A stretch of DNA of 64,000 bases, from the sequence record OM632671.1; one strand, given 5' to 3'. Both the position numbers and the translations under genes were made by a program. This document shows, piece by piece, positions 1-14,531 of this stretch (position 1 is its first letter; each line of letters opens with the position of its first letter). The stretch comes from Escherichia phage BEU50. The notes under the pieces were generated by a model. That model was given only the letters and a program-made list of their open reading frames with translations. It had not been told where the DNA came from and made no database searches.

Positions 1-882
1 TCTAAAATTGACTCATATAACAAAGTTATTAAGATGTATCATGATGGTGGTACATGTCCTACTTGTGCATCACAGTTGCACCAGGGTGATCCTATTGTCT
101 CTAAGATTACCGATAAGCTTCACGAATGTAATCACTCATTCGAGCAACTTACATGTCACAGAGATAATCTGAGTGTCCTAGTGGACGAATATAGAGCTAA
201 TGTTAAGACTAAACAGGACCTTGCATCTGATATTCGTACCAAGAAACAAGCAATGATTGCCACTATTGATAAAGCTAAGAAAGTTAAAGCTGCAATAGAA
301 CAAGCCTCGGCGGAATTTATCGACCATGCCGATGAGATAGCTTTGCTTCAAAAAGAACTTGATAAAATCATTAAAACAAAATCGGATATCGTTCTTGAAA
401 AATACCATCGCGGTATTATCACAGATATGTTAAAAGATTCTGGTATTAAAGGTGCTATCATTAAAAAATATGTGCCTCTGTTCAACAAGCAGATTAACCA
501 TTATCTTAAAATCATGGAAGCTGATTATGTGTTTTCTATTGACGAAGAATTCAATGAATCTATAAAATCACGTGGACGTGAAGAATTCAGTTATGCTTCG
601 TTTAGTCAAGGTGAAAAGGCACGTATCGATATCGCATTGTTGTTTACATGGCGAGATATCGCTGAAAAGGTCTCTGGCGTTAGAATCAATACATTAATTA
701 TGGACGAAGTCATGGATTCCGCGACTGATTCTGAAGGTATTAAAGCTATTTCAACAATTCTTAACTCTCTAACCGATGCAAACGTGTTTATAATTAGTCA
801 CAGAGACCATGACCCACAAGCTTATGGACAACATCTTCAAATGAGCAAAGTTGGACGATTTACTGTAATGAAAGCCTCTTAA
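1..882 (+). CDS. 46: Recombination endonuclease subunit gp46 (SbcC/Rad50-like), C-terminal part; 5' end lies outside the window
   Basis: Frame open from position 1; translation has the Rad50/SbcC-type signature region (FSQGEKARIDIALL ... LIMDEV); synteny directly upstream of 45.2/rpbA/45. Confidence 0.8.
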   Translation, partial: SKIDSYNKVIKMYHDGGTCPTCASQLHQGDPIVSKITDKLHECNHSFEQLTCHRDNLSVLVDEYRANVKTKQDLASDIRTKKQAMIATIDKAKKVKAAIEQASAEFIDHADEIALLQKELDKIIKTKSDIVLEKYHRGIITDMLKDSGIKGAIIKKYVPLFNKQINHYLKIMEADYVFSIDEEFNESIKSRGREEFSYASFSQGEKARIDIALLFTWRDIAEKVSGVRINTLIMDEVMDSATDSEGIKAISTILNSLTDANVFIISHRDHDPQAYGQHLQMSKVGRFTVMKAS

Positions 883-1595
883 TGAGGCTTATATTTACAA
901 TTATCGAAATGCCAACGATGCATATTAGCAGGGATCCCTATTTTATCGCAATGAGGACATTTAATTTTCTTGTCCTCTTTTTTCTTTCTGTTAGGATTTG
1001 ATTTACAGAATTTTATATGTGGCTTTAACGCCGATAACTTAGTAGTTAAGCCACAAAACGGGCAAGAATCTTCTTTCCAAATTTTCGTGGCCATGGTTTT
1101 AATTATTTTATCTTTTGTTTCTTGATCAAGTTTTACTATTTTAGGCGTTGGACCTTGTTTACAATTATCAAAATGCCAACGTCGCATGTTTCCTTCAGTT
1201 CCAGTTAAACCACAATGTGGACAGGTAATCTTTGGTTTATTTTTTGCAGACTCGGACATTTTCTTACGGGTTTCAGCAGTGAATTCTTTATTCTTTTGAA
1301 CTTCTTGATTCTTACGTCGAAGCCATCCAAATAATTTGTTTTTGCTTCTATCTGCTTTAGGAGATGATATGGTCATCATACGAGCGGCATATATTAAAGA
1401 GGCATTATCTGGATGGATTTTTACCAACAGTTGATGTGCCAAATAATGTTCTTCCGGTGTTAAGTCTACTAAGTTTAAAGCATCATCACTTCCACCTAAA
1501 CATTGTGGTATAATGTGATGACGTTCTGTATAACCATCTAAACTTCTTGATTTAGCATTGGTGATAAGCTTTTCGTATATTGAGTTATAATTCAT
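879..1595 (-). CDS. HNH homing endonuclease with three C-terminal zinc-ribbon repeats (Mob/I-TevIII-like)
   Basis: N-terminal HNH motif (TERHHIIPQCLGGSDDALNLVDLTPEEHYLAH); three CPHCG...RWHFDNCK repeats; opposite orientation to flanking early genes; paralogue of 35065..35862 and 61264..62073. Confidence 0.75.
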   Translation of the reverse strand: MNYNSIYEKLITNAKSRSLDGYTERHHIIPQCLGGSDDALNLVDLTPEEHYLAHQLLVKIHPDNASLIYAARMMTISSPKADRSKNKLFGWLRRKNQEVQKNKEFTAETRKKMSESAKNKPKITCPHCGLTGTEGNMRRWHFDNCKQGPTPKIVKLDQETKDKIIKTMATKIWKEDSCPFCGLTTKLSALKPHIKFCKSNPNRKKKEDKKIKCPHCDKIGIPANMHRWHFDNCKYKPH

Positions 1596-5077: not shown

Positions 5078-7789
5078 ATGAAAGAATTTTACTTAACGGT
5101 TGAACAGATTGGTGATTCAATTTTTGAACGTTACATCGATTCTAATGGCCGTGAACGTACTCGTGAAGTAGAATATAAACCATCACTGTTTGCTCATTGT
5201 CCAGAAAGTCAGGCTACGAAATATTTCGATATCTACGGTAAACCGTGTACTCGTAAGTTGTTCGCTAATATGCGTGATGCCTCCCAATGGATTAAACGCA
5301 TGGAAGATATCGGACTTGAAGCACTTGGCATGGACGATTTCAAATTGGCGTATTTGTCTGACACTTATAACTATGAAATCAAATACGACCATACAAAAAT
5401 TCGTGTGGCTAACTTCGACATCGAAGTAACATCTCCGGATGGGTTCCCTGAGCCGTCACAAGCAAAACATCCTATTGATGCTATCACCCATTATGACTCA
5501 ATTGACGACAGGTTCTACGTATTTGATCTATTGAATTCTCCATATGGTAATGTGGAAGAATGGTCTATCGAAATTGCGGCTAAGCTTCAAGAACAAGGCG
5601 GTGATGAAGTTCCATCCGAAATTATCGACAAAATCGTTTATATGCCGTTCGATAACGAAAAAGAATTGTTGATGGAATATCTCAACTTCTGGCAACAGAA
5701 AACTCCTGTCATTTTGACTGGATGGAACGTTGAGTCATTTGATATTCCATATGTGTATAACCGAATCAAGAATATTTTTGGCGAATCTACTGCGAAACGT
5801 TTATCACCACATCGTAAAACTCGTGTTAAAGTTATCGAAAACATGTATGGTTCTCGTGAAATCATTACATTGTTCGGTATCTCTGTTCTTGATTACATTG
5901 ACCTTTACAAAAAATTCTCTTTTACCAATCAACCGTCGTATTCTCTGGATTACATTTCAGAATTTGAATTGAACGTTGGTAAACTGAAATATGACGGCCC
6001 TATTTCTAAGCTTCGTGAAAGCAATCACCAACGATATATTTCTTATAACATTATCGACGTGTATCGTGTATTGCAAATTGATGCTAAGCGTCAGTTCATC
6101 AACTTGAGCTTGGACATGGGTTATTATGCTAAGATACAGATTCAATCTGTGTTTAGCCCAATTAAAACATGGGATGCTATTATTTTTAATAGCCTTAAAG
6201 AGCAGAACAAGGTGATTCCACAAGGTCGTTCTCACCCAGTTCAACCTTACCCTGGTGCTTTTGTTAAGGAACCTATTCCAAATCGATACAAATATGTAAT
6301 GAGTTTCGACCTTACATCTCTGTATCCAAGTATTATTCGCCAAGTGAATATTAGCCCGGAAACAATAGCAGGAACGTTTAAAGTAGCTCCACTGCATGAT
6401 TATATTAACGCAATCGCTGAACGTCCTTCAGATGTGTACAGTTGCTCTCCTAACGGCATGATGTATTATAAAGACCGTGATGGTGTAGTTCCAACTGAAA
6501 TCACTAAGGTCTTTAATCAACGTAAAGAACATAAAGGTTACATGCTTGCAGCTCAACGTAATGGTGAAATAATTAAAGAGGCATTGCATAATCCTAATCT
6601 TTCTGTTGACGAACCATTAGATGTTGATTATCGTTTCGACTTCAGTGATGAGATTAAAGAAAAGATTAAAAAGTTGTCTGCTAAATCTCTTAATGAAATG
6701 TTGTTTAGAGCTCAACGTACTGAAGTTGCAGGTATGACTGCACAGATTAACCGTAAATTGCTCATCAACTCACTTTATGGTGCACTTGGCAACGTTTGGT
6801 TCCGTTATTATGATTTGCGTAATGCTACTGCAATCACAACATTTGGTCAAATGGCTTTACAGTGGATTGAACGTAAAGTTAATGAATATCTGAATGAAGT
6901 TTGTGGTACAGAAGGTGAAGCTTTCGTTCTATATGGTGATACAGACTCCATTTACGTATCTGCAGATAAAATTATTGATAAGGTTGGTGAATCTAAATTC
7001 CGTGATACCAACCATTGGGTAGACTTCTTAGATAAGTTCGCTCGTGAACGTATGGAACCTGCTATTGATAGAGGTTTCCGTGAAATGTGCGAATACATGA
7101 ACAATAAACAACACTTAATGTTCATGGACCGAGAAGCTATCGCTGGTCCTCCGCTCGGTTCTAAAGGTATTGGTGGATTTTGGACTGGTAAGAAACGTTA
7201 TGCATTAAACGTGTGGGATATGGAAGGAACCAGATACGCTGAACCTAAGCTTAAAATCATGGGTCTCGAAACACAGAAATCTTCGACTCCTAAAGCAGTA
7301 CAGAAAGCTCTTAAAGAATGTATTCGTCGTATGCTTCAAGAAGGTGAAGAATCATTACAAGAATATTTTAAAGAGTTTGAAAAAGAATTCCGTCAATTGA
7401 ATTATATTAGCATCGCGTCGGTATCTTCTGCGAATAACATTGCTAAATATGATGTAGGTGGATATCCAGGACCTAAATGCCCGTTCCATATTCGTGGAAT
7501 TCTGACGTATAACCGGGCTATCAAAGGTAATACCGATGCACCGCAAGTTGTAGAAGGTGAAAAAGTATATGTTCTGCCTTTACGTGAAGGAAACCCATTC
7601 GGTGATAAATGTATCGCATGGCCTTCTGGTACTGAAATCACAGATTTAATTAAAGACGATGTACTTCATTGGATGGACTACACTGTTCTCCTTGAGAAGA
7701 CATTTATTAAACCACTTGAAGGATTCACATCAGCAGCGAAACTCGATTACGAGAAGAAAGCATCTCTGTTCGATATGTTCGATTTTTGA
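5078..7789 (+). CDS. 43: DNA polymerase gp43 (family B), RB69-type, 903 aa
   Basis: Translation matches the RB69 polymerase sequence as I remember it (MKEFYLTVEQIGDSIFERYIDSNGRERTREVEYKPSLFAHC...), exonuclease motifs FDIE and YNIIDV, polymerase motifs SLYPS, YGDTDS. Confidence 0.95.
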   Translation: MKEFYLTVEQIGDSIFERYIDSNGRERTREVEYKPSLFAHCPESQATKYFDIYGKPCTRKLFANMRDASQWIKRMEDIGLEALGMDDFKLAYLSDTYNYEIKYDHTKIRVANFDIEVTSPDGFPEPSQAKHPIDAITHYDSIDDRFYVFDLLNSPYGNVEEWSIEIAAKLQEQGGDEVPSEIIDKIVYMPFDNEKELLMEYLNFWQQKTPVILTGWNVESFDIPYVYNRIKNIFGESTAKRLSPHRKTRVKVIENMYGSREIITLFGISVLDYIDLYKKFSFTNQPSYSLDYISEFELNVGKLKYDGPISKLRESNHQRYISYNIIDVYRVLQIDAKRQFINLSLDMGYYAKIQIQSVFSPIKTWDAIIFNSLKEQNKVIPQGRSHPVQPYPGAFVKEPIPNRYKYVMSFDLTSLYPSIIRQVNISPETIAGTFKVAPLHDYINAIAERPSDVYSCSPNGMMYYKDRDGVVPTEITKVFNQRKEHKGYMLAAQRNGEIIKEALHNPNLSVDEPLDVDYRFDFSDEIKEKIKKLSAKSLNEMLFRAQRTEVAGMTAQINRKLLINSLYGALGNVWFRYYDLRNATAITTFGQMALQWIERKVNEYLNEVCGTEGEAFVLYGDTDSIYVSADKIIDKVGESKFRDTNHWVDFLDKFARERMEPAIDRGFREMCEYMNNKQHLMFMDREAIAGPPLGSKGIGGFWTGKKRYALNVWDMEGTRYAEPKLKIMGLETQKSSTPKAVQKALKECIRRMLQEGEESLQEYFKEFEKEFRQLNYISIASVSSANNIAKYDVGGYPGPKCPFHIRGILTYNRAIKGNTDAPQVVEGEKVYVLPLREGNPFGDKCIAWPSGTEITDLIKDDVLHWMDYTVLLEKTFIKPLEGFTSAAKLDYEKKASLFDMFDF

Positions 7790-7829: not shown

Positions 7830-8465
7830 ATGAAAACTACTCCTATTACTATCGCTATTGACGCAATCATAAAACAAGCTTCTTCTTTGGCCGCTATGGC
7901 CAAAGTAATTAGTCAAAACCCTGCTCGTTATAATGCTATTCTAGAAACTCTTCGACGCCCGGGACTTAGTAATTATGAAAGCCGAGTAATTATTACAGGT
8001 GTTGGTAAGAATGCTAATATTGCAACTAAAGCTTCTGAGACATTTGCTTCACTCGGTATCCCGAGTATGTACTTGAACACTGGGCATTATTCTCACGGTG
8101 ATGCAGGATTCATTGCGCCTAATGATGTGTTGATTCATATTAGTCGTTCTGGTAAAACTGAAGAAATGATAGGCGTGGCTAAGCATCTTAAAATGATTCG
8201 ACCGAACGTCAAACAGATTCTGTTGCATTGTAACCCAGACATTCCACAAGAAAATGAAGCCCTTTTTGATTACTCTTTCTGTACAGGCATCGCAGTAGAG
8301 GTTGATGAGAATTCTCTGGCTCCGACTATGTCCACTACATTGTTGTTAGCGCTTATCGATACGTTTGCTATCAACCTTTCGTCTGAACGTGGATTTACCT
8401 CTAATGACTTCCTTAAGTTCCACCCTGGTGGTGCACTAGGTGCCATGTTACGAGGCGAACAATGA
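7830..8465 (+). CDS. SIS-domain sugar-phosphate isomerase, KdsD/GutQ-type arabinose-5-phosphate isomerase catalytic domain without CBS domains
   Basis: Motifs GVGKNANIATKASETFASLG, HGDAG, ISRSGKT, LAPTMSTT, HPGGALG align with the KdsD SIS domain (ATFASTG, HGDLG, ISNSGES, LAPTSSTT, HPGGALG) from memory. Confidence 0.7.
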   Translation: MKTTPITIAIDAIIKQASSLAAMAKVISQNPARYNAILETLRRPGLSNYESRVIITGVGKNANIATKASETFASLGIPSMYLNTGHYSHGDAGFIAPNDVLIHISRSGKTEEMIGVAKHLKMIRPNVKQILLHCNPDIPQENEALFDYSFCTGIAVEVDENSLAPTMSTTLLLALIDTFAINLSSERGFTSNDFLKFHPGGALGAMLRGEQ

Positions 8466-8646: not shown

Positions 8647-10332
8647 ATGAAAAAAGCTGTTATTCTTGGTGCTGGACTGGCAACTCGTTTATATCCAATT
8701 ACTCACCATATTCCTAAGGTGCTTGTTAACTATAAACAAGACACTATTCTGAGCAATTTGTATACAATTTATTCTGACCTAGGCGCAGATGAAATTATTG
8801 TAGTAGTTCATTCAAAATTTGCTGAAACTGTTCGAGCTTATTGTGAGCAAGAAGGGTTCAATGTGACTATTCGTACAGTTGATGAAGCGTATGGTTCTGC
8901 TTATGCTCTTGCTAAATTACACAAAGATTTAGACGGCCATAATGTAATTGTTAACTGGTGTGATATTATTCCGGATTTTGGTTCATGGTCTTGGAATGTT
9001 AACGCAATCTATGTTAAGGGTGACGAATGTCGATATAATTTCGACGGTGAAAATATCACTAACGTAGGTTCAACAGGTGGTAATGTTGTAGGAATTTATC
9101 AGTTCAAAGACTGGGAATTCTATATGGGTTCTACTGATGAGGAAATTCATGAATACTGCAAAGGACGTGATTTCGTAGAATTCCTTTACGGCAGCGCATT
9201 CAATAAATCAGAGCTTATGAATCTAATTGATTTAGGTGATATGCCTAAACTTGAAAAAGCTCATGAAGTTCGTGAACTTAATCGTAGTTTTAATGCAGTT
9301 GAAATTGGTGAAGAAACTGTAACTAAATTCGCATTAACCGAACAGGGCCGAGCTCTTCAGAAAGATGAGATTTCGTGGTATTTGAAAGTGAAATCAGATT
9401 CAGTCCCTCAGTTAGTTTCTGTTAATGAAAATAACTTTGAAATGGAACGCATTAAAGGTAAGCCGGCATTTGAATATATTAAATCCAAATCAAGTCTTGC
9501 TCGTCCACAAATTGTTGATGCAATTTTAGATGCACTGAAATTCAGCACAGACACTTATTTTGTAAGTCCTGAAACTGTTCGTCGTGATTTCACTAAAGAA
9601 TTCTATACGAAAGTTATTGATCGTTGTGAAAGCATTCAACCATTGATTGATTCATTTGGTAAAATCACACATGTGAACTACACTAAGATTGGACGTCTGA
9701 AGCCAATGCTGAAACAAGCTTTAGAACACCTTATTCGTTATCATAACCGTTCTCAGGGACAGTACTCTGTTATTCATGGTGACCCGAACTTCAGTAATAC
9801 TATGATTACTGATAACGGCGAAGTCAAATTTATCGACCCTCGTGGATATTTTGGCGAAACCAAGATTTACGGGCCAAAATTGTACGATGAAGCTAAAGTG
9901 CTTTACGCTGTTTCAGGTTATGATGAATTCAATGCTAATCCGACCTGGGGACAGTTTACTATTGATGAAACAACTTGTAATGTGACTATTAACATCAATC
10001 CATTAGTTTACAAATATGGAAAGATGAGTTCGTTTAACGAGTATCATCATTTGGCAGTGGCAATTATCTGGATTGCATTAGGTGGTTATTTCAAGAATAA
10101 TCCACTTAAAGCGGTAGCCGCATATTATAAAGGTATGGAACTTCTGACTAAGCAATTACGTAACATGGGCCGTGTACTTCAGGACGGCTCTATTAGTTAT
10201 GACGTAGCAGAACCTGTAACGGCTACTCTGATTACAAAAAATCCTGGTAAATGGGTACTAACTGATAAAGAAACTGGTGTTTCCTATCGTCCAATCGGTG
10301 GCGATATCACTCATCAATGGGAACGAATTTGA
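8647..10332 (+). CDS. Bifunctional sugar-1-phosphate nucleotidyltransferase (N-terminal) / APH-fold anomeric sugar kinase (C-terminal)
   Basis: N-terminal MKKAVILGAGLATRLYPIT (RmlA/GlmU-type G-x-G-T-R-L motif); C-terminal HGDPNFSNTMITDNGEVKFIDPRGYFG (APH/choline-kinase Brenner motif HGDxxxxN and DxxG). Confidence 0.65.
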   Translation: MKKAVILGAGLATRLYPITHHIPKVLVNYKQDTILSNLYTIYSDLGADEIIVVVHSKFAETVRAYCEQEGFNVTIRTVDEAYGSAYALAKLHKDLDGHNVIVNWCDIIPDFGSWSWNVNAIYVKGDECRYNFDGENITNVGSTGGNVVGIYQFKDWEFYMGSTDEEIHEYCKGRDFVEFLYGSAFNKSELMNLIDLGDMPKLEKAHEVRELNRSFNAVEIGEETVTKFALTEQGRALQKDEISWYLKVKSDSVPQLVSVNENNFEMERIKGKPAFEYIKSKSSLARPQIVDAILDALKFSTDTYFVSPETVRRDFTKEFYTKVIDRCESIQPLIDSFGKITHVNYTKIGRLKPMLKQALEHLIRYHNRSQGQYSVIHGDPNFSNTMITDNGEVKFIDPRGYFGETKIYGPKLYDEAKVLYAVSGYDEFNANPTWGQFTIDETTCNVTININPLVYKYGKMSSFNEYHHLAVAIIWIALGGYFKNNPLKAVAAYYKGMELLTKQLRNMGRVLQDGSISYDVAEPVTATLITKNPGKWVLTDKETGVSYRPIGGDITHQWERI

Positions 10333-11078
10333 TACATTATCTCTACAAAACTACTAATCTTATAAACGGTAAAGTTTATTTAGGAATGCACTCGGCTGAA
10401 GAAGCCGAGCCTTTAGATTTATATAAAGGTTCTGGTAAATTATATAAAAAGGCTGAAAGGAAATACGGTAAGGAAAATTTTCTTAAAGAAATCATTTCCT
10501 ACCATAGCTCAAGAGAAGAATTAAAAATAGCTGAAAAGGCTCTAATAACATTAGACATAGTTAAAGACCCGAATTATTACAATCTTAAAACTGGTGGCGA
10601 AGGTGGTTCTGACGGGTTATCCCAAAGGTCCAAGGATAAAATTTCTAAGGCAAATAAAGGACGTTTAGTTGGTGATAAAAACCCAAGATGGGGTAAAACT
10701 TTGTCAGCTGAATCTATAGCTAGGGGTAAAGAAAAGCACAGGAGGTATGGTAAACCTGCATTACATGGTCTAAAGATTAATGTAGATGGCAAATATTATG
10801 AATCCTGTCGGGAAGCGGCTAAAGATTTGGGTATATCTTCTGCCACGATTCAAAAGAGAGTAAAATCGCCTAAATATCTTAATTATCGATATCAGGACGA
10901 AAGCAAAAATGCTCACAAGTCTCAAAAATTTGTTAAAATAAACGAAAATTACTATGAATCTCTTAGGATAGCTGAAAAGAAAACGGGTATTCCTAGAAAG
11001 CGTATAGCTGATAATATTAAAAATTCTATTGAAGGATATTGCTATGAAACCATTACATCTTTGCGTGGACGTCGATGA
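10317..11078 (+). CDS. GIY-YIG homing endonuclease (seg-like) with NUMOD-type DNA-binding repeats
   Basis: N-terminal YLYKTTNLINGKVYLGMH (GIY-YIG core); repeated KISKANKGR / GK-x-x-S-x-E motifs; overlaps neighbours at both ends as typical of free-standing HEGs. Confidence 0.65.
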   Translation: MGTNLIHYLYKTTNLINGKVYLGMHSAEEAEPLDLYKGSGKLYKKAERKYGKENFLKEIISYHSSREELKIAEKALITLDIVKDPNYYNLKTGGEGGSDGLSQRSKDKISKANKGRLVGDKNPRWGKTLSAESIARGKEKHRRYGKPALHGLKINVDGKYYESCREAAKDLGISSATIQKRVKSPKYLNYRYQDESKNAHKSQKFVKINENYYESLRIAEKKTGIPRKRIADNIKNSIEGYCYETITSLRGRR

Positions 11079-11418
11079 TTGTATAACAGAGTGGAATAAC
11101 AATCGTGATTACGTGAACTTCAAACCAGACGTCGAAATGGTGTCTGCCATTAATGCCCTGTATGAGGCAGGGCATACCATAACGCTTTACACTGCTCGCG
11201 GTATGAAGTCAGTAGGTCCTGGTCGTATAGCAATTGACATTCTCCCAAGTCTGATTCAGAACTTGGCAAACATTGGCTTGAAGTACCATAATTTGCTAAC
11301 ACATAAACCAGTATATGATTGGATTATCGACGACAAAGCTATGCGTCCTGACGAATTCAAAGCTCTTATGAATAAAGGCGAATTCGAAACATTTAAATCA
11401 TATAAACCGAATCTATAA
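11044..11418 (+). CDS. HAD-superfamily phosphatase (small, KdsC/GmhB-like)
   Basis: Motif I LCVDVDDCIT (DxDx[T/V]); about 125 aa; ATG at 11044 preferred over 11029. Confidence 0.55.
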   Translation: MKPLHLCVDVDDCITEWNNNRDYVNFKPDVEMVSAINALYEAGHTITLYTARGMKSVGPGRIAIDILPSLIQNLANIGLKYHNLLTHKPVYDWIIDDKAMRPDEFKALMNKGEFETFKSYKPNL

Positions 11419-11464
11419 TAATTTAAGTAAGACCTGCAAAAACCATCGCATCAATTAACGTGAG

Positions 11465-12637
11465 ATGCAAAAAAAAATGAATACTTTTAAAATCGGAACG
11501 AATTTTGATTTAGCTCTTCTTGATAAAATCGTAGAGCTCAATAAAACTTATCCTAATAGCTTGATAAACGAAGTATACGGCTCTACAAGAGAAATGGCTT
11601 TTGTAGCAGCCAGACCTGATTTTAGGCTTCCTGACGTTGACAAAAAGATGTTAGAAGATTACGTTAAACGTTGTAACGAATTAGGTATTTGCTTTAACTA
11701 TACACTCAACACGATAAATCCTGGTTCAAAAAGAGAACTAGTTGAGTGGAAGAAGAAAGCTATTCAGGATTATGTTCAGTATCTTTGGTCAATAGGCGTA
11801 TGGCGTATTACTATCGCTAACCCTGTTGTTATGGAAATTGTTCGTGAAGTCAATAAAGACATTGAGATTGAAGTTTCAACAATTCTACATGTCGATGCTG
11901 TAACTCAAATCAAATACTTGCATGACCAATATAATATCAAAAAGGTCTGCTGTGGAATTCATAAGAACCGTTCAGTTTCTTTCCTGAAGCGTGCAGCAGA
12001 GTTTTGCAATAAGAACAATATAATATTTGAAGTTCTTGTAAATGAGTTCTGTTCTAATGCTGGTAAAGGGTATACAACACATTGTAGCTATCGTGACTCT
12101 TGCTATATTTTCCATAGTACTGATGTTACAGCTGATGATGCTAAATCCTTAAACGGATATCCAATGCAGCACTGTATTAAAGCTCGTGATACAGACCCAT
12201 TTAACTGGTTGAGAACTCGTTTTGTTCGTCCTCAAGATTTGAAACTTTATAATGATATTGGTATCACTCAATTCAAAGTTTCAGGACGTACAGGTAGCAC
12301 AGACTACATTTTGAAAGTTCTTGAAGCATACGCTTCTGAAAAGTTTGAAGGTAATTTGTTAGAACTGTGGAAGCCTTTAGAGACTATTTTCACTCTTGAA
12401 AACGAAACTGAGTTTTCACATACGGTAAATATTGAAACCTCTTTGTTAGATGGCTTTTTAGAAAAAAGGTGGTTCAGACATCCAGATTTCGATTGTGCTA
12501 ATGAAATCTGCGGGACGACGTGTACATATTGTGAAAGATATTATAAACGTCAGTTATCTAAAAATGGGTTATCAGAAAATTCTATATCTATTATTGATAT
12601 AACTAACTCTGACGACGCTTTGAGGTACCCGGAATGA
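11465..12637 (+). CDS. Cys-rich protein with U32-family-like features (function unknown)
   Basis: EVLVNEFCSNAGKGYTTHCSYRDSC and FKVSGRTGSTDY resemble U32 family signatures (E-x-F...C...C and K-I-E-G-R-x-x-S-x-x-Y); C-terminal CANEICGTTCTYCERYY cysteine cluster; weak, from memory. Confidence 0.3.
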   Translation: MQKKMNTFKIGTNFDLALLDKIVELNKTYPNSLINEVYGSTREMAFVAARPDFRLPDVDKKMLEDYVKRCNELGICFNYTLNTINPGSKRELVEWKKKAIQDYVQYLWSIGVWRITIANPVVMEIVREVNKDIEIEVSTILHVDAVTQIKYLHDQYNIKKVCCGIHKNRSVSFLKRAAEFCNKNNIIFEVLVNEFCSNAGKGYTTHCSYRDSCYIFHSTDVTADDAKSLNGYPMQHCIKARDTDPFNWLRTRFVRPQDLKLYNDIGITQFKVSGRTGSTDYILKVLEAYASEKFEGNLLELWKPLETIFTLENETEFSHTVNIETSLLDGFLEKRWFRHPDFDCANEICGTTCTYCERYYKRQLSKNGLSENSISIIDITNSDDALRYPE

Positions 12638-12915: not shown

Positions 12916-13632
12916 ATGGGAAAACATAACACAATGAAATATATCAAAGCCGCAGATTTTCAAGCCGCATTTAAAGCAGTCAATCGTGAAATTTTAGAAA
13001 ACCCGGAATTCGTAACTGATTCTCGTATTGGGCGTTGTAATGAAATTGGGTCTATGACAGTAGTTGTTGACACTCCATCATCATTCAAAATGACCGACCC
13101 ACGTATTAACCGCATCTCTTATGAATATGCCGAAGACTTCTGGAAGTTTATGATTTCTGGTGGTACCAACGCAGAAGAAGCGTTTAAGGCATATCCTAAT
13201 GTCGCTAAATTTATTTCTAAACCAAAATCAGATGTTTTGCCGGCGAACTTCAACACTTTCTATGGTCCTCGCATTGCGGCCCAATTACCAGCTCTTCTAA
13301 AAGAACTTAAAGAGAAGCCTAACTCTCGAAGAGTTGTGTTCCAAATTCTAGAAAGTTCTGATCAGGCTTTGCTTGATTCAGACGAAACGCTTGAATATCC
13401 ATGTACTGACTCAGTGACTTATTATATTCGTGATGGTAAGCTTTATACCCACTGTCATATGCGTTCTCAGAACTGTGCTGTTGTTATGCAGTTGGATTTT
13501 TATCTCCAAGGAAAATTACTTCATTATATCGCTAACGAATGTGGTGTAGAAGTTGGTGATTATACTCATACCATGGTAAGTGCCCATGTGTTTGAACGTG
13601 ATTTTGATTATGTTAAAGGATTCCTTGACTAA
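12916..13632 (+). CDS. 42: dCMP hydroxymethylase gp42-like (thymidylate synthase fold)
   Basis: TS-fold motifs (RRVVFQILESSD, EYPCTDSVTYYIRDGKLYTHCHMRSQN, H..VFERD); T4 position between 43 and uvsX. Confidence 0.7.
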   Translation: MGKHNTMKYIKAADFQAAFKAVNREILENPEFVTDSRIGRCNEIGSMTVVVDTPSSFKMTDPRINRISYEYAEDFWKFMISGGTNAEEAFKAYPNVAKFISKPKSDVLPANFNTFYGPRIAAQLPALLKELKEKPNSRRVVFQILESSDQALLDSDETLEYPCTDSVTYYIRDGKLYTHCHMRSQNCAVVMQLDFYLQGKLLHYIANECGVEVGDYTHTMVSAHVFERDFDYVKGFLD

Positions 13633-14531
13633 TGGCTATTTTCCGCGTACCTATTTTGAGTATGCGGTCTTATGAAACTGGACAGTATGCCATCCTTAAG
13701 GATGGCAACTTCCAACTTCATTTGCACCGTGCTAATCCAGGTGATGTGATTACATATCCACGTAATGCATCCGATATTAAAGAATGTGAACGTCTTTTCC
13801 CAGAATTTAAGTTTGTTCCATTATGGTATAAAGATAACGCGTATAACACTCGTAAATATTTCTGGTCTGAAAATGAATTTGTGGTTGATTCATTAATCGC
13901 TTATTATGATTGTGATTTTCTAATCACAGATATCACTGGATACGACGGCGCTTTTGATGTAGAATTCAATTTCAATATCACTGCAGACCCTAATAAACCA
14001 CGTTTTTATATTGACGAATTCTTAAAAACCGACATGTTGTCGGTTAATCGTTCAATCCAAACAACTGTGTTGAATAAACGTCAAAAGGAAGTGCTGGTTA
14101 ACGCAGGTGCAGATGGTAATAAGATTATCATAACCCAGAAAGTTATACGTCCTTCCATCATGCAGCGTCTTGTAGGTGATTTAGCTCCTATTCATCTAGA
14201 TGGTATTTTTCATCCATTTCGAATTAGTGACCCGTGCTATCGGTTTGAACAAGTGGTTGAATGTGCAATTCAATTAGGCCAACCGCTTTATATAACCGAT
14301 CCAAATAATAGCTTCGACAGAAATAAGTATCCTGAAGAAGCGCTGATTCGAATTTTTAAACCAACTAAAACTGAGTACTATCAAATTCTTAAAGGACGTC
14401 CGAAGATTCAATATTTCGAAAATCCTGAAGAAGTATTCCATCCAGGTCTTGGTGAGTTCATCTACTTTAATGCTTTAATTTCTTCACCGTATAATATACC
14501 TAAATACGAAGATGTCGTAATCGAGGAATAA
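13632..14531 (+). CDS. Hypothetical protein (299 aa) at the locus where T4 encodes beta-glucosyltransferase
   Basis: ORF with ATG overlapping gene 42 stop; no confident family assignment; position-based suspicion of a DNA-modification role. Confidence 0.4.
   Translation: MAIFRVPILSMRSYETGQYAILKDGNFQLHLHRANPGDVITYPRNASDIKECERLFPEFKFVPLWYKDNAYNTRKYFWSENEFVVDSLIAYYDCDFLITDITGYDGAFDVEFNFNITADPNKPRFYIDEFLKTDMLSVNRSIQTTVLNKRQKEVLVNAGADGNKIIITQKVIRPSIMQRLVGDLAPIHLDGIFHPFRISDPCYRFEQVVECAIQLGQPLYITDPNNSFDRNKYPEEALIRIFKPTKTEYYQILKGRPKIQYFENPEEVFHPGLGEFIYFNALISSPYNIPKYEDVVIEE

Follow-up and report, generated by a model that had tools for sequence, protein, structure and literature searches.

A GIY-YIG endonuclease gene between two sugar-nucleotide genes

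The subject of this analysis is an open reading frame (ORF) for a GIY-YIG endonuclease that lies between two genes of a sugar-nucleotide operon in Escherichia phage BEU50 (OM632671.1), an RB69-like T4-type phage of the genus Mosigvirus, of which RB69 is the type. The stretch analysed, hereafter the window, is 64,000 nucleotides (nt) long. A reading made earlier from the sequence alone (the original prediction) had taken this ORF for a free-standing homing endonuclease gene that invaded an operon, overlaps a kinase/nucleotidyltransferase gene on one side and a HAD phosphatase gene on the other, and could drive the horizontal spread of the flanking modification genes. We found the ORF exactly where it had been placed, at 10317–11078 on the plus strand, intact and encoding 253 amino acids (aa) from an ATG. 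Both overlaps were also as described: the ORF shares 16 nt with the kinase gene at its 5′ end and 35 nt with the phosphatase gene at its 3′ end, counting from the phosphatase ATG at 11044 that is used in the annotation of phage NRG-P0074 (50 nt if counted from a TTG at 11029).

The upstream neighbour (8647–10332, plus strand) encodes a 561-aa protein with an N-terminal nucleotidyltransferase and a C-terminal kinase (Pfam NTP_transferase, 8.5e-10; weak kinase-fold matches over residues 308–409; NCBIfam nucleotidyltransferase matches), orthologous to RB69 gp52:53 and AfhE-like. The downstream neighbour (11044–11418, plus strand) encodes a 124-aa HAD-type phosphatase, orthologous to RB69 gp51 and AfhF-like (TIGR01689 capsule biosynthesis phosphatase, 1.8e-13; phrog_1238), whose nucleophile motif DVDD begins at 11068. 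The names originally given to these genes were right, judging from the profile matches and from a 2026 study that describes RB69 gp52:53 as an AfhE-like bifunctional nucleotidyltransferase/kinase and gp51 as an AfhF-like phosphatase, the products of which make activated arabinose for glycosylating the modified cytosine of the phage (PMC13326640).

The product has the domains of a Seg-like GIY-YIG homing endonuclease

By domain identity, the product of the endonuclease ORF is a Seg-like GIY-YIG homing endonuclease. It matched PHROG 314 ‘homing endonuclease’ (E=3.4e-43) and passed the curated profile TIGR01453 ‘group I intron endonuclease’ (63 bits against a cut-off of 56). The superfamily hallmark is a pair of motifs, ‘GIY’ and ‘YIG’, that are about 10–11 residues apart, and both strand motifs were present: Y10, Y21 and G23 were invariant in 63 homologues, and the structural model placed strands at E5–14 and E20–28. 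The full set of catalytic motifs comprised Y8/Y10 (HYLY, residues 7–10), Y21-L-G23 (VYLG, residues 20–23), H25, Y36-x-G38-S-G40-K, E73 and N89. All 11 columns that are invariant in the homologues (Y10, N14, Y21, G23, Y36, G38, G40, G51, F55, E73 and N89) were kept in the window protein. The counterparts of the catalytic Glu and Asn of I-TevI (E75 and N90) were E73 and N89, which are invariant in the 63 sequences and aligned in T4 SegB.

Homologue alignment, identity to SegB and the predicted local distance difference test (pLDDT) scores together delimited a Seg-type GIY-YIG catalytic domain at approximately residues 5–97 (10329–10607, plus strand). Residues 1–122 of T4 SegB, a homing endonuclease with experimentally shown activity (PMC2330249), aligned with it at 45% identity (E=8e-29; window residues 5–120) and shared the catalytic motif set YxYK..Y.G.H..Y.GSGK..KYG..NF..E..YN. 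The catalytic domain is followed by a NUMOD3-type linker at residues 102–135 (10620–10721, plus strand; Pfam NUMOD3 at its cut-off, 20.4 bits), with a KISKANKGR..G.KNP motif that is invariant in the endonuclease family, and then by two tandem beta-beta-helix-turn-helix-beta modules at residues ~152–192 and ~203–246 (10770–11054, plus strand), identified from Pfam, PDB entry 1i3j and the model. The Pfam families I-TevI_DNA-bd (3.6e-8) and NUMOD1 (3e-5) both fell on residues 152–192 and, like NUMOD3, were at or above their cut-offs. Consistent with this layout, the AlphaFold2 model (mean pLDDT 86.4; 91–98 over residues 11–90 and 86 over residues 1–10) began with an alpha/beta domain, continued through a linker of poor order and ended in two helix-turn-helix modules, the secondary-structure pattern of the module occurring twice. 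The best Foldseek matches were the catalytic domain of I-TevI (1mk0 and 1ln0; probability 0.99, target TM-score 0.64–0.67, with weak E-values of 0.05–0.1 owing to a query that comprised the entire two-domain model) and its DNA-binding domain (1i3j; 0.97). The fold search was more informative than a direct sequence search of the PDB, which returned a marginal match to 1i3j alone (E=0.036).

No Rfam family matched at E≤1 in 9500–12000, and the ORF lies between two complete genes with their own stop and start. A group I intron or intein context was ruled out on these grounds; the endonuclease gene is therefore free-standing. Together with the profile matches, the identity to SegB and the fold matches to I-TevI, this bears out the identity that had been proposed for it.

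Both of these T4 enzymes are instructive comparisons. The window gene resembles segB, and the segA–segG genes in general, in being free-standing between phage genes and missing from close relatives, so that intronless homing is expected. Unlike SegB, the window protein has a C-terminal half composed of the NUMOD3 linker and two I-TevI-type helix-turn-helix modules; its gene sits in an arabinose-nucleotide operon, whereas that of SegB sits in a tRNA cluster; it runs into both neighbouring genes and supplies a new 5′ end to the one downstream; and the window enzyme is known from sequence. With I-TevI, which is encoded in the T4 td intron, the window protein shares the order of an N-terminal GIY-YIG domain, a flexible linker and C-terminal helix-turn-helix DNA binding. 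The two catalytic domains are about 20% identical in sequence; unlike I-TevI, the window gene has no Rfam intron, its helix-turn-helix module is duplicated and no zinc finger was recognised in its linker.

The gene is a precise insertion that is absent from most relatives

We compared positions 9300–12100 with 50,697 phage records by megablast and obtained 188 matches, of which about 153 were at least 95% identical. Full-query coverage was found in only three records, NRG-P0074, a20 and JM17; the rest, RB69 included, matched in two pieces that skipped the ORF. About 98% of close relatives thus lack the endonuclease gene (3 carriers vs ~150 empty-site Mosigvirus records), and the flanks of filled and empty alleles are 98–99% identical. 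The three carriers already have the ORF annotated as a homing endonuclease in GenBank. A 2021 comparative paper reported that variation in this region among close relatives is mostly the presence or absence of putative homing endonucleases (PMC8056088). The original prediction had proposed a comparison of this locus across relatives; far from all relatives carrying the ORF, the site is empty and intact in RB69 and about 150 other Mosigvirus records, which bears out an insertion into the operon.

When the window was aligned with seven endonuclease-free Mosigvirus genomes, RB69 and F27 among them, the inserted segment proper came to lie at 10329–11070 (plus strand), where 742 nt replace 42 nt of the empty allele (CTAATGCACCGTGTAGAAAACATGCTTAATCTTTGTTTTGAT). 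Every fixed difference between carriers and non-carriers falls within this interval. MAFFT spread the 42-nt empty segment within the gap, which produced spurious ‘fixed differences’ at 10904–10914, and the junctions were therefore set by eye. Kinase stop and phosphatase start overlap each other in the empty allele (..GAA CGA ATC TAATG CAC CGT..). In the filled allele, the kinase 3′ end reads ..CGA ATT TGA and its stop is overlapped by a TTG start (TTGA). The ATG at 10317 falls in sequence that endonuclease-free alleles have too, within kinase codons (CAA TGG), and element-specific sequence starts with the TTG at 10329, the position at which six of the seven closest homologues begin. For these reasons, the true start may be the TTG at 10329 (249 aa) instead of the ATG at 10317 (253 aa), and the start is ambiguous.

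At the other end, a Shine–Dalgarno-like AAGGA (11032–11036, plus strand) lies inside the endonuclease coding sequence, 7 nt 5′ of the phosphatase ATG at 11044. The first nine phosphatase codons, MKPLHLCVD (11044–11070, plus strand), are borne by the element and replace thirteen codons (MHRVENMLNLCFD) of endonuclease-free alleles, and identity between filled and empty alleles picks up again at GTC GAT GAT, in the DVDD nucleophile motif. The phosphatase N terminus of the empty allele (..MHRVEN.L.LCFD) is conserved across several genera. As read from these alignments, the element rebuilds the translation start and N terminus of the downstream phosphatase, supplying a putative ribosome-binding site, a start codon and nine codons of its own.

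The same site is occupied in distant T4-like phages

Outside Mosigvirus, the closest annotated homologue was Ac42p079, which is 51% identical over 96% of the length and is listed as a putative GIY-YIG homing endonuclease; its source, Acinetobacter phage Ac42, is a member of another subfamily, Twarogvirinae. Among 5.8 billion proteins searched were six more full-length family members at 53–71% identity, all in metagenomic T4-like contigs, so that identity to the window copy across the family is 50–71%. All eight members (the window gene, Ac42p079, P0002, P0003, P0004, P0006, P0007 and P0008) lie directly 5′ of the orthologous phosphatase. Four of the six metagenomic copies have the same 32–35-nt overlap with the phosphatase gene and a phosphatase N terminus of the form MKPL/MKKL.., and the embedded ATG and N-terminal phosphatase codons are kept in the five copies that overlap the phosphatase at their 3′ end. 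The position of the Shine–Dalgarno-like motif is occupied by GAAGGAT or AAAGGAT in the metagenomic loci L005, L006, L007 and L046; among the three Ac42-type copies it reads GAGGA in Ac42 and L047 and GAGTG in L045. Ac42p079, like the window gene, directly precedes the phosphatase gene, but it does not overlap it (its stop is 1 nt before the ATG), and three small ORFs separate it from the kinase gene. Petrov et al. counted five homing endonuclease genes in Ac42 and none in RB69 (PMC2993671).

Across loci, the identity of the endonuclease to the window copy roughly follows that of the flanking genes: for kinase, endonuclease and phosphatase, respectively, the values were 68/71/83% in L005, 43/61/61% in L006, 43/62/67% in L007 and 51/51/61% in Ac42. 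Of the T4-like clusters with both a kinase and a phosphatase gene that a phosphatase query brought up in IMG/VR, none but Ac42 had this family at the junction, and tblastn at E≤1 detected no remnants of the endonuclease gene in 21 endonuclease-free T4-like loci. Because all eight members occupy the same junction and the family is absent, without remnants, from the other clusters, it is, by sequence comparison, rare, old and tied to one site.

Several other features of these distant loci concern homing endonucleases. In two IMG/VR T4-like genomes, L009 (3854–4501) and L012 (3830–4501), a different GIY-YIG endonuclease gene lies directly 3′ of the phosphatase gene; in the catalytic domain, its product and the window protein are about 35% identical. 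Taking different phages together, homing endonuclease insertion sites therefore flank the phosphatase gene at either end. In Ac42 (L004, 3975–4000), about 25 nt 5′ of the endonuclease start (gtgagtcataattaggggaacgtatt) appear to resemble the kinase 3′ end of enterobacterial phages (atcactcatcaatgggaacgaat, window 10304–10328) and are unlike the end of the kinase gene of Ac42 itself; the stretch is short, and it may be a relic of flanking DNA that moved with the element. In L006 (metagenomic T4-like contig ERZ13616879 NODE_47), a GIY-YIG ORF at 1400–2098 lies between two DNA_pol_B fragments, and the DNA polymerase gene appears to be split by a homing endonuclease gene.

The element sits on different backgrounds and its protein is under purifying selection

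We next aligned 18.8 kilobases (kb) from four carriers (the window, NRG-P0074, a20 and JM17) and seven non-carriers. No carrier-linked single-nucleotide polymorphism (SNP) was found outside 10329–11070, and hence no extended co-conversion haplotype; any co-conversion tracts must therefore be short or have been erased. Sites that distinguish the carriers from one another occur within about 150 bp to the left of the element (10164 and 10182) and about 90 bp to its right (11143 and 11157), and over the nearest kilobase on each side the distance between carriers is not below that between carriers and non-carriers. The backbone of JM17 differs from the window at 17–25 positions per kb and is as distant as any non-carrier, and the backbones of the window, NRG-P0074 and a20 are somewhat related (9–17 differences per kb). 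The element is thus found on at least two backgrounds, which is consistent with lateral movement by recombination.

The same data do not support the hitchhiking of modification genes, which the original prediction had put forward: there is no linked SNP in the flanks, the carriers have different flank haplotypes and the only phosphatase sequence that travels with the element is its first nine codons. Nor was the idea new, as the 2021 comparative paper had speculated that base-modification genes could be transferred along with homing endonuclease genes (PMC8056088).

Among the four copies of the element, seven sites are polymorphic (10466–10889). All seven changes are synonymous, at third codon positions, and all four copies encode one and the same protein. 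Synonymous changes make up 21% of those possible, which puts the probability of seven out of seven at about 2e-5, and the endonuclease protein is therefore under purifying selection. Diversity inside the element, 5–7 differences per kb, is similar to that of the flanks. This similarity, together with a frequency of about 2%, indicates that the element neither arrived very recently nor went through a sweep.

These observations bear on two alternatives. One is that the ORF is an inactive relic that persists as the supplier of the phosphatase translation start. The Shine–Dalgarno-like motif, ATG and first nine codons of the phosphatase all lie inside the ORF, so a precise loss would need replacement rather than deletion, as this alternative would have it. 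However, such a role needs only the last ~47 nt, yet the 253-aa frame is intact in all eight family members, all of the invariant residues of the catalytic domain are kept, and the seven synonymous SNPs lie well 5′ of the overlap. We regard a relic as extremely improbable.

The other is that the gene was present ancestrally and diverged together with the operon by vertical descent, most lineages having lost it by recombination with empty alleles, so that homing is rare or does not occur today. The agreement between endonuclease and flank identity across L005, L006, L007 and Ac42, the lack of a near-identical donor copy outside Mosigvirus, and the low frequency and flank-like diversity of the Mosigvirus copies would all fit such a history. 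It is harder to reconcile with the form of the empty allele, which simple deletion cannot restore because its 42 nt encode a different phosphatase N terminus that is kept across genera, or with the presence of the element on unrelated flank haplotypes; a run of seven synonymous changes is also hard to explain for a nuclease that no longer acts. On balance, we consider such a history unlikely.

Expression and a candidate target

We found no T4 late promoter (TATAAATA) within 12 kb, sigma-70-like promoter matches were at chance level (16 found against 18 expected), and neither an operator-like repeat nor a promoter of its own was found for the endonuclease gene. The missing late promoter, the chance-level sigma-70 matches and the TTGA overlap suggest that the gene is co-transcribed with the operon and translated at a low level by coupling. 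A 7-bp GC-rich hairpin (CTCGGCTGAAGAAGCCGAG; 10391–10409, plus strand) in the 5′ part of the ORF was flagged by a terminator scan and is without a proper T tract; a regulatory role is possible.

Directly 5′ of the catalytic Asp codon of the phosphatase, carriers read TGC GTG GAC where empty alleles read TGT TTT GAT. All eight carrier alleles encode V, I or L (GTG, ATA or CTG) in front of the nucleophile Asp, and F (TTT or TTC) stands there in 18 of the 20 endonuclease-free alleles, which come from many genera. Homing endonucleases commonly recognise DNA that encodes conserved catalytic residues, and carriers commonly differ from non-carriers at the target. It is therefore a reasonable guess that ..CTTTGTTTTGATGTCGATGAT.. 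of the empty alleles forms part of the recognition site. In adjoining the catalytic-residue codons of its host gene, the putative target would resemble that of I-TevI in thymidylate synthase, a comparison reportedly made by Edgell et al. in 2004, to judge from the title of that work.

The two endonuclease-free alleles that have V or I rather than F before the catalytic Asp are L013 and L023, both from IMG/VR. In L013, a 353-nt spacer that includes another ORF also separates the phosphatase gene from the kinase gene. These alleles may be former carriers or naturally resistant.

A proposed model for homing within the operon

Taking together the domain identity of the product, the insertion boundaries, the presence/absence polymorphism, the conservation of the site and the purifying selection, all observed here, we think it likely that the gene encodes a Seg-like GIY-YIG homing endonuclease resident at the nucleotidyltransferase/kinase–phosphatase junction of the T4-like arabinose-nucleotide operon. 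A mechanism would add to these a predicted nuclease activity, a target position, immunity conferred by substitutions and translational coupling. The gene, with no promoter of its own, would be co-transcribed with the operon and translated at a low level, probably through coupling to the kinase stop codon (TTGA). In a mixed infection, the product would bind the endonuclease-free allele of a co-infecting relative through its two C-terminal helix-turn-helix modules, and the N-terminal GIY-YIG domain would then cut near the binding site. Recombinational repair off the endonuclease-bearing genome would copy the 742-nt element into the broken one. Since the element brings with it a ribosome-binding site, a start codon and the nine opening codons of the phosphatase, the operon would stay functional and the insertion would be tolerated. 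The altered 5′ end of the phosphatase gene (TGC GTG GAC for TGT TTT GAT) would probably also destroy the target and so leave carriers immune.

Several points weigh against this interpretation. The Pfam GIY-YIG models stayed below their cut-offs for the endonuclease ORF, SegE_GIY-YIG among them (E=2.3e-3; 18.6 bits against a cut-off of 25). Arg27 of I-TevI has no obvious invariant counterpart, as the 63 homologues share no invariant Arg and have a Seg-type Y36-x-G-S-G-K41 at this place; the same is true of SegB, which is active. The nuclease activity of the product, like that of the rest of its subfamily, is a prediction. The flanks have no visible co-conversion haplotype, and the element is rare (~2% of sequenced Mosigvirus genomes) and as diverse as its flanks, with no sign of the sweep that would be expected of an efficient drive. 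Finally, the correlation of F or V/I/L with the empty or filled state is not phylogenetically independent and could reflect lineage history.

Purifying selection despite a low frequency could also mean that the protein is kept for some other benefit, such as the exclusion of competing relatives, recombination or amplification near the modification genes, or repression of the operon. I-TevI, for one, represses itself. The T4 Seg enzymes mediate partial exclusion of T2 (PMC2993671), a 2026 paper describes SegB as amplifying anti-defence loci (PMC13096335), and the putative target lies next to the codons for the catalytic Asp residues in a gene of the operon. Yet nothing in the sequence sets such a benefit apart from ordinary homing, presence or absence at one conserved site is the classic signature of homing, and the search for an operator-like repeat or a promoter of its own came back empty. 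We therefore hold this explanation to be quite improbable. A more speculative extension of the homing model is that the family is a long-term, co-evolved resident of the arabinosyl-cytosine operon, with a single insertion site throughout at least two subfamilies of T4-like phages. It would target the Asp-region DNA of a rival’s endonuclease-free phosphatase gene and convert the rival with a resistant but fully working 5′ end (Shine–Dalgarno motif, ATG and nine codons, F giving way to V/I/L), and so might serve as a weapon of competition that breaks the rival’s modification pathway in co-infection; we think this rather unlikely.

Neighbouring genes and a second candidate endonuclease

Upstream of the kinase gene lie gene 43, for DNA polymerase (5078–7789), and a gene for a SIS-domain arabinose-5-phosphate isomerase (7830–8465). 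The phosphatase gene is followed, in order, by genes for a U32-peptidase-like protein, a thymidylate-synthase homologue, a putative glycosyltransferase (13632–14531), a kinase-like protein and UvsX. In the RB69 record, the nucleotidyltransferase/kinase gene is split into ORF053c and ORF052c, and the putative glycosyltransferase gene into ORF047c and ORF046c. Both are single ORFs in the window and in most relatives, and the splits reflect either frameshifts in RB69 or sequencing errors in its 2003 record.

A second ORF, of 238 aa (879–1595, minus strand), lies between genes 46 and 45.2. NRG-P0074 and a20 have it under the annotation ‘homing endonuclease’, and JM17, F27, RB69 and other relatives lack it. 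Its only Pfam matches were weak ones to zinc ribbons. Comparison with the GIY-YIG ORF revealed no kinship between the two.

What the locus adds

In kind, the window gene is an ordinary Seg-like free-standing homing endonuclease gene, a well-supported example of a known mobile element that leaves the understanding of homing endonucleases unchanged. What the analysis adds is the exact boundaries of the insert, the use of one site across phage subfamilies, a phosphatase translation start embedded in the element, evidence of purifying selection, the absence of a linked flank haplotype and a hypothesis for the target. In practice, this is a site at which the genomes of Mosigvirus phages for phage therapy will differ, and it is a possible source of a new programmable GIY-YIG nuclease domain. 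The natural pair of filled and empty alleles, with exact boundaries, could be used to study intronless homing on arabinosylated DNA. RB69 is listed as having no homing endonuclease genes (PMC2993671); its close relatives acquire them, even inside the operon that makes the sugar donor for hypermodified cytosine. The locus also lets one ask how an element can enter a tightly coupled operon without breaking it, by carrying the translation start of the next gene.

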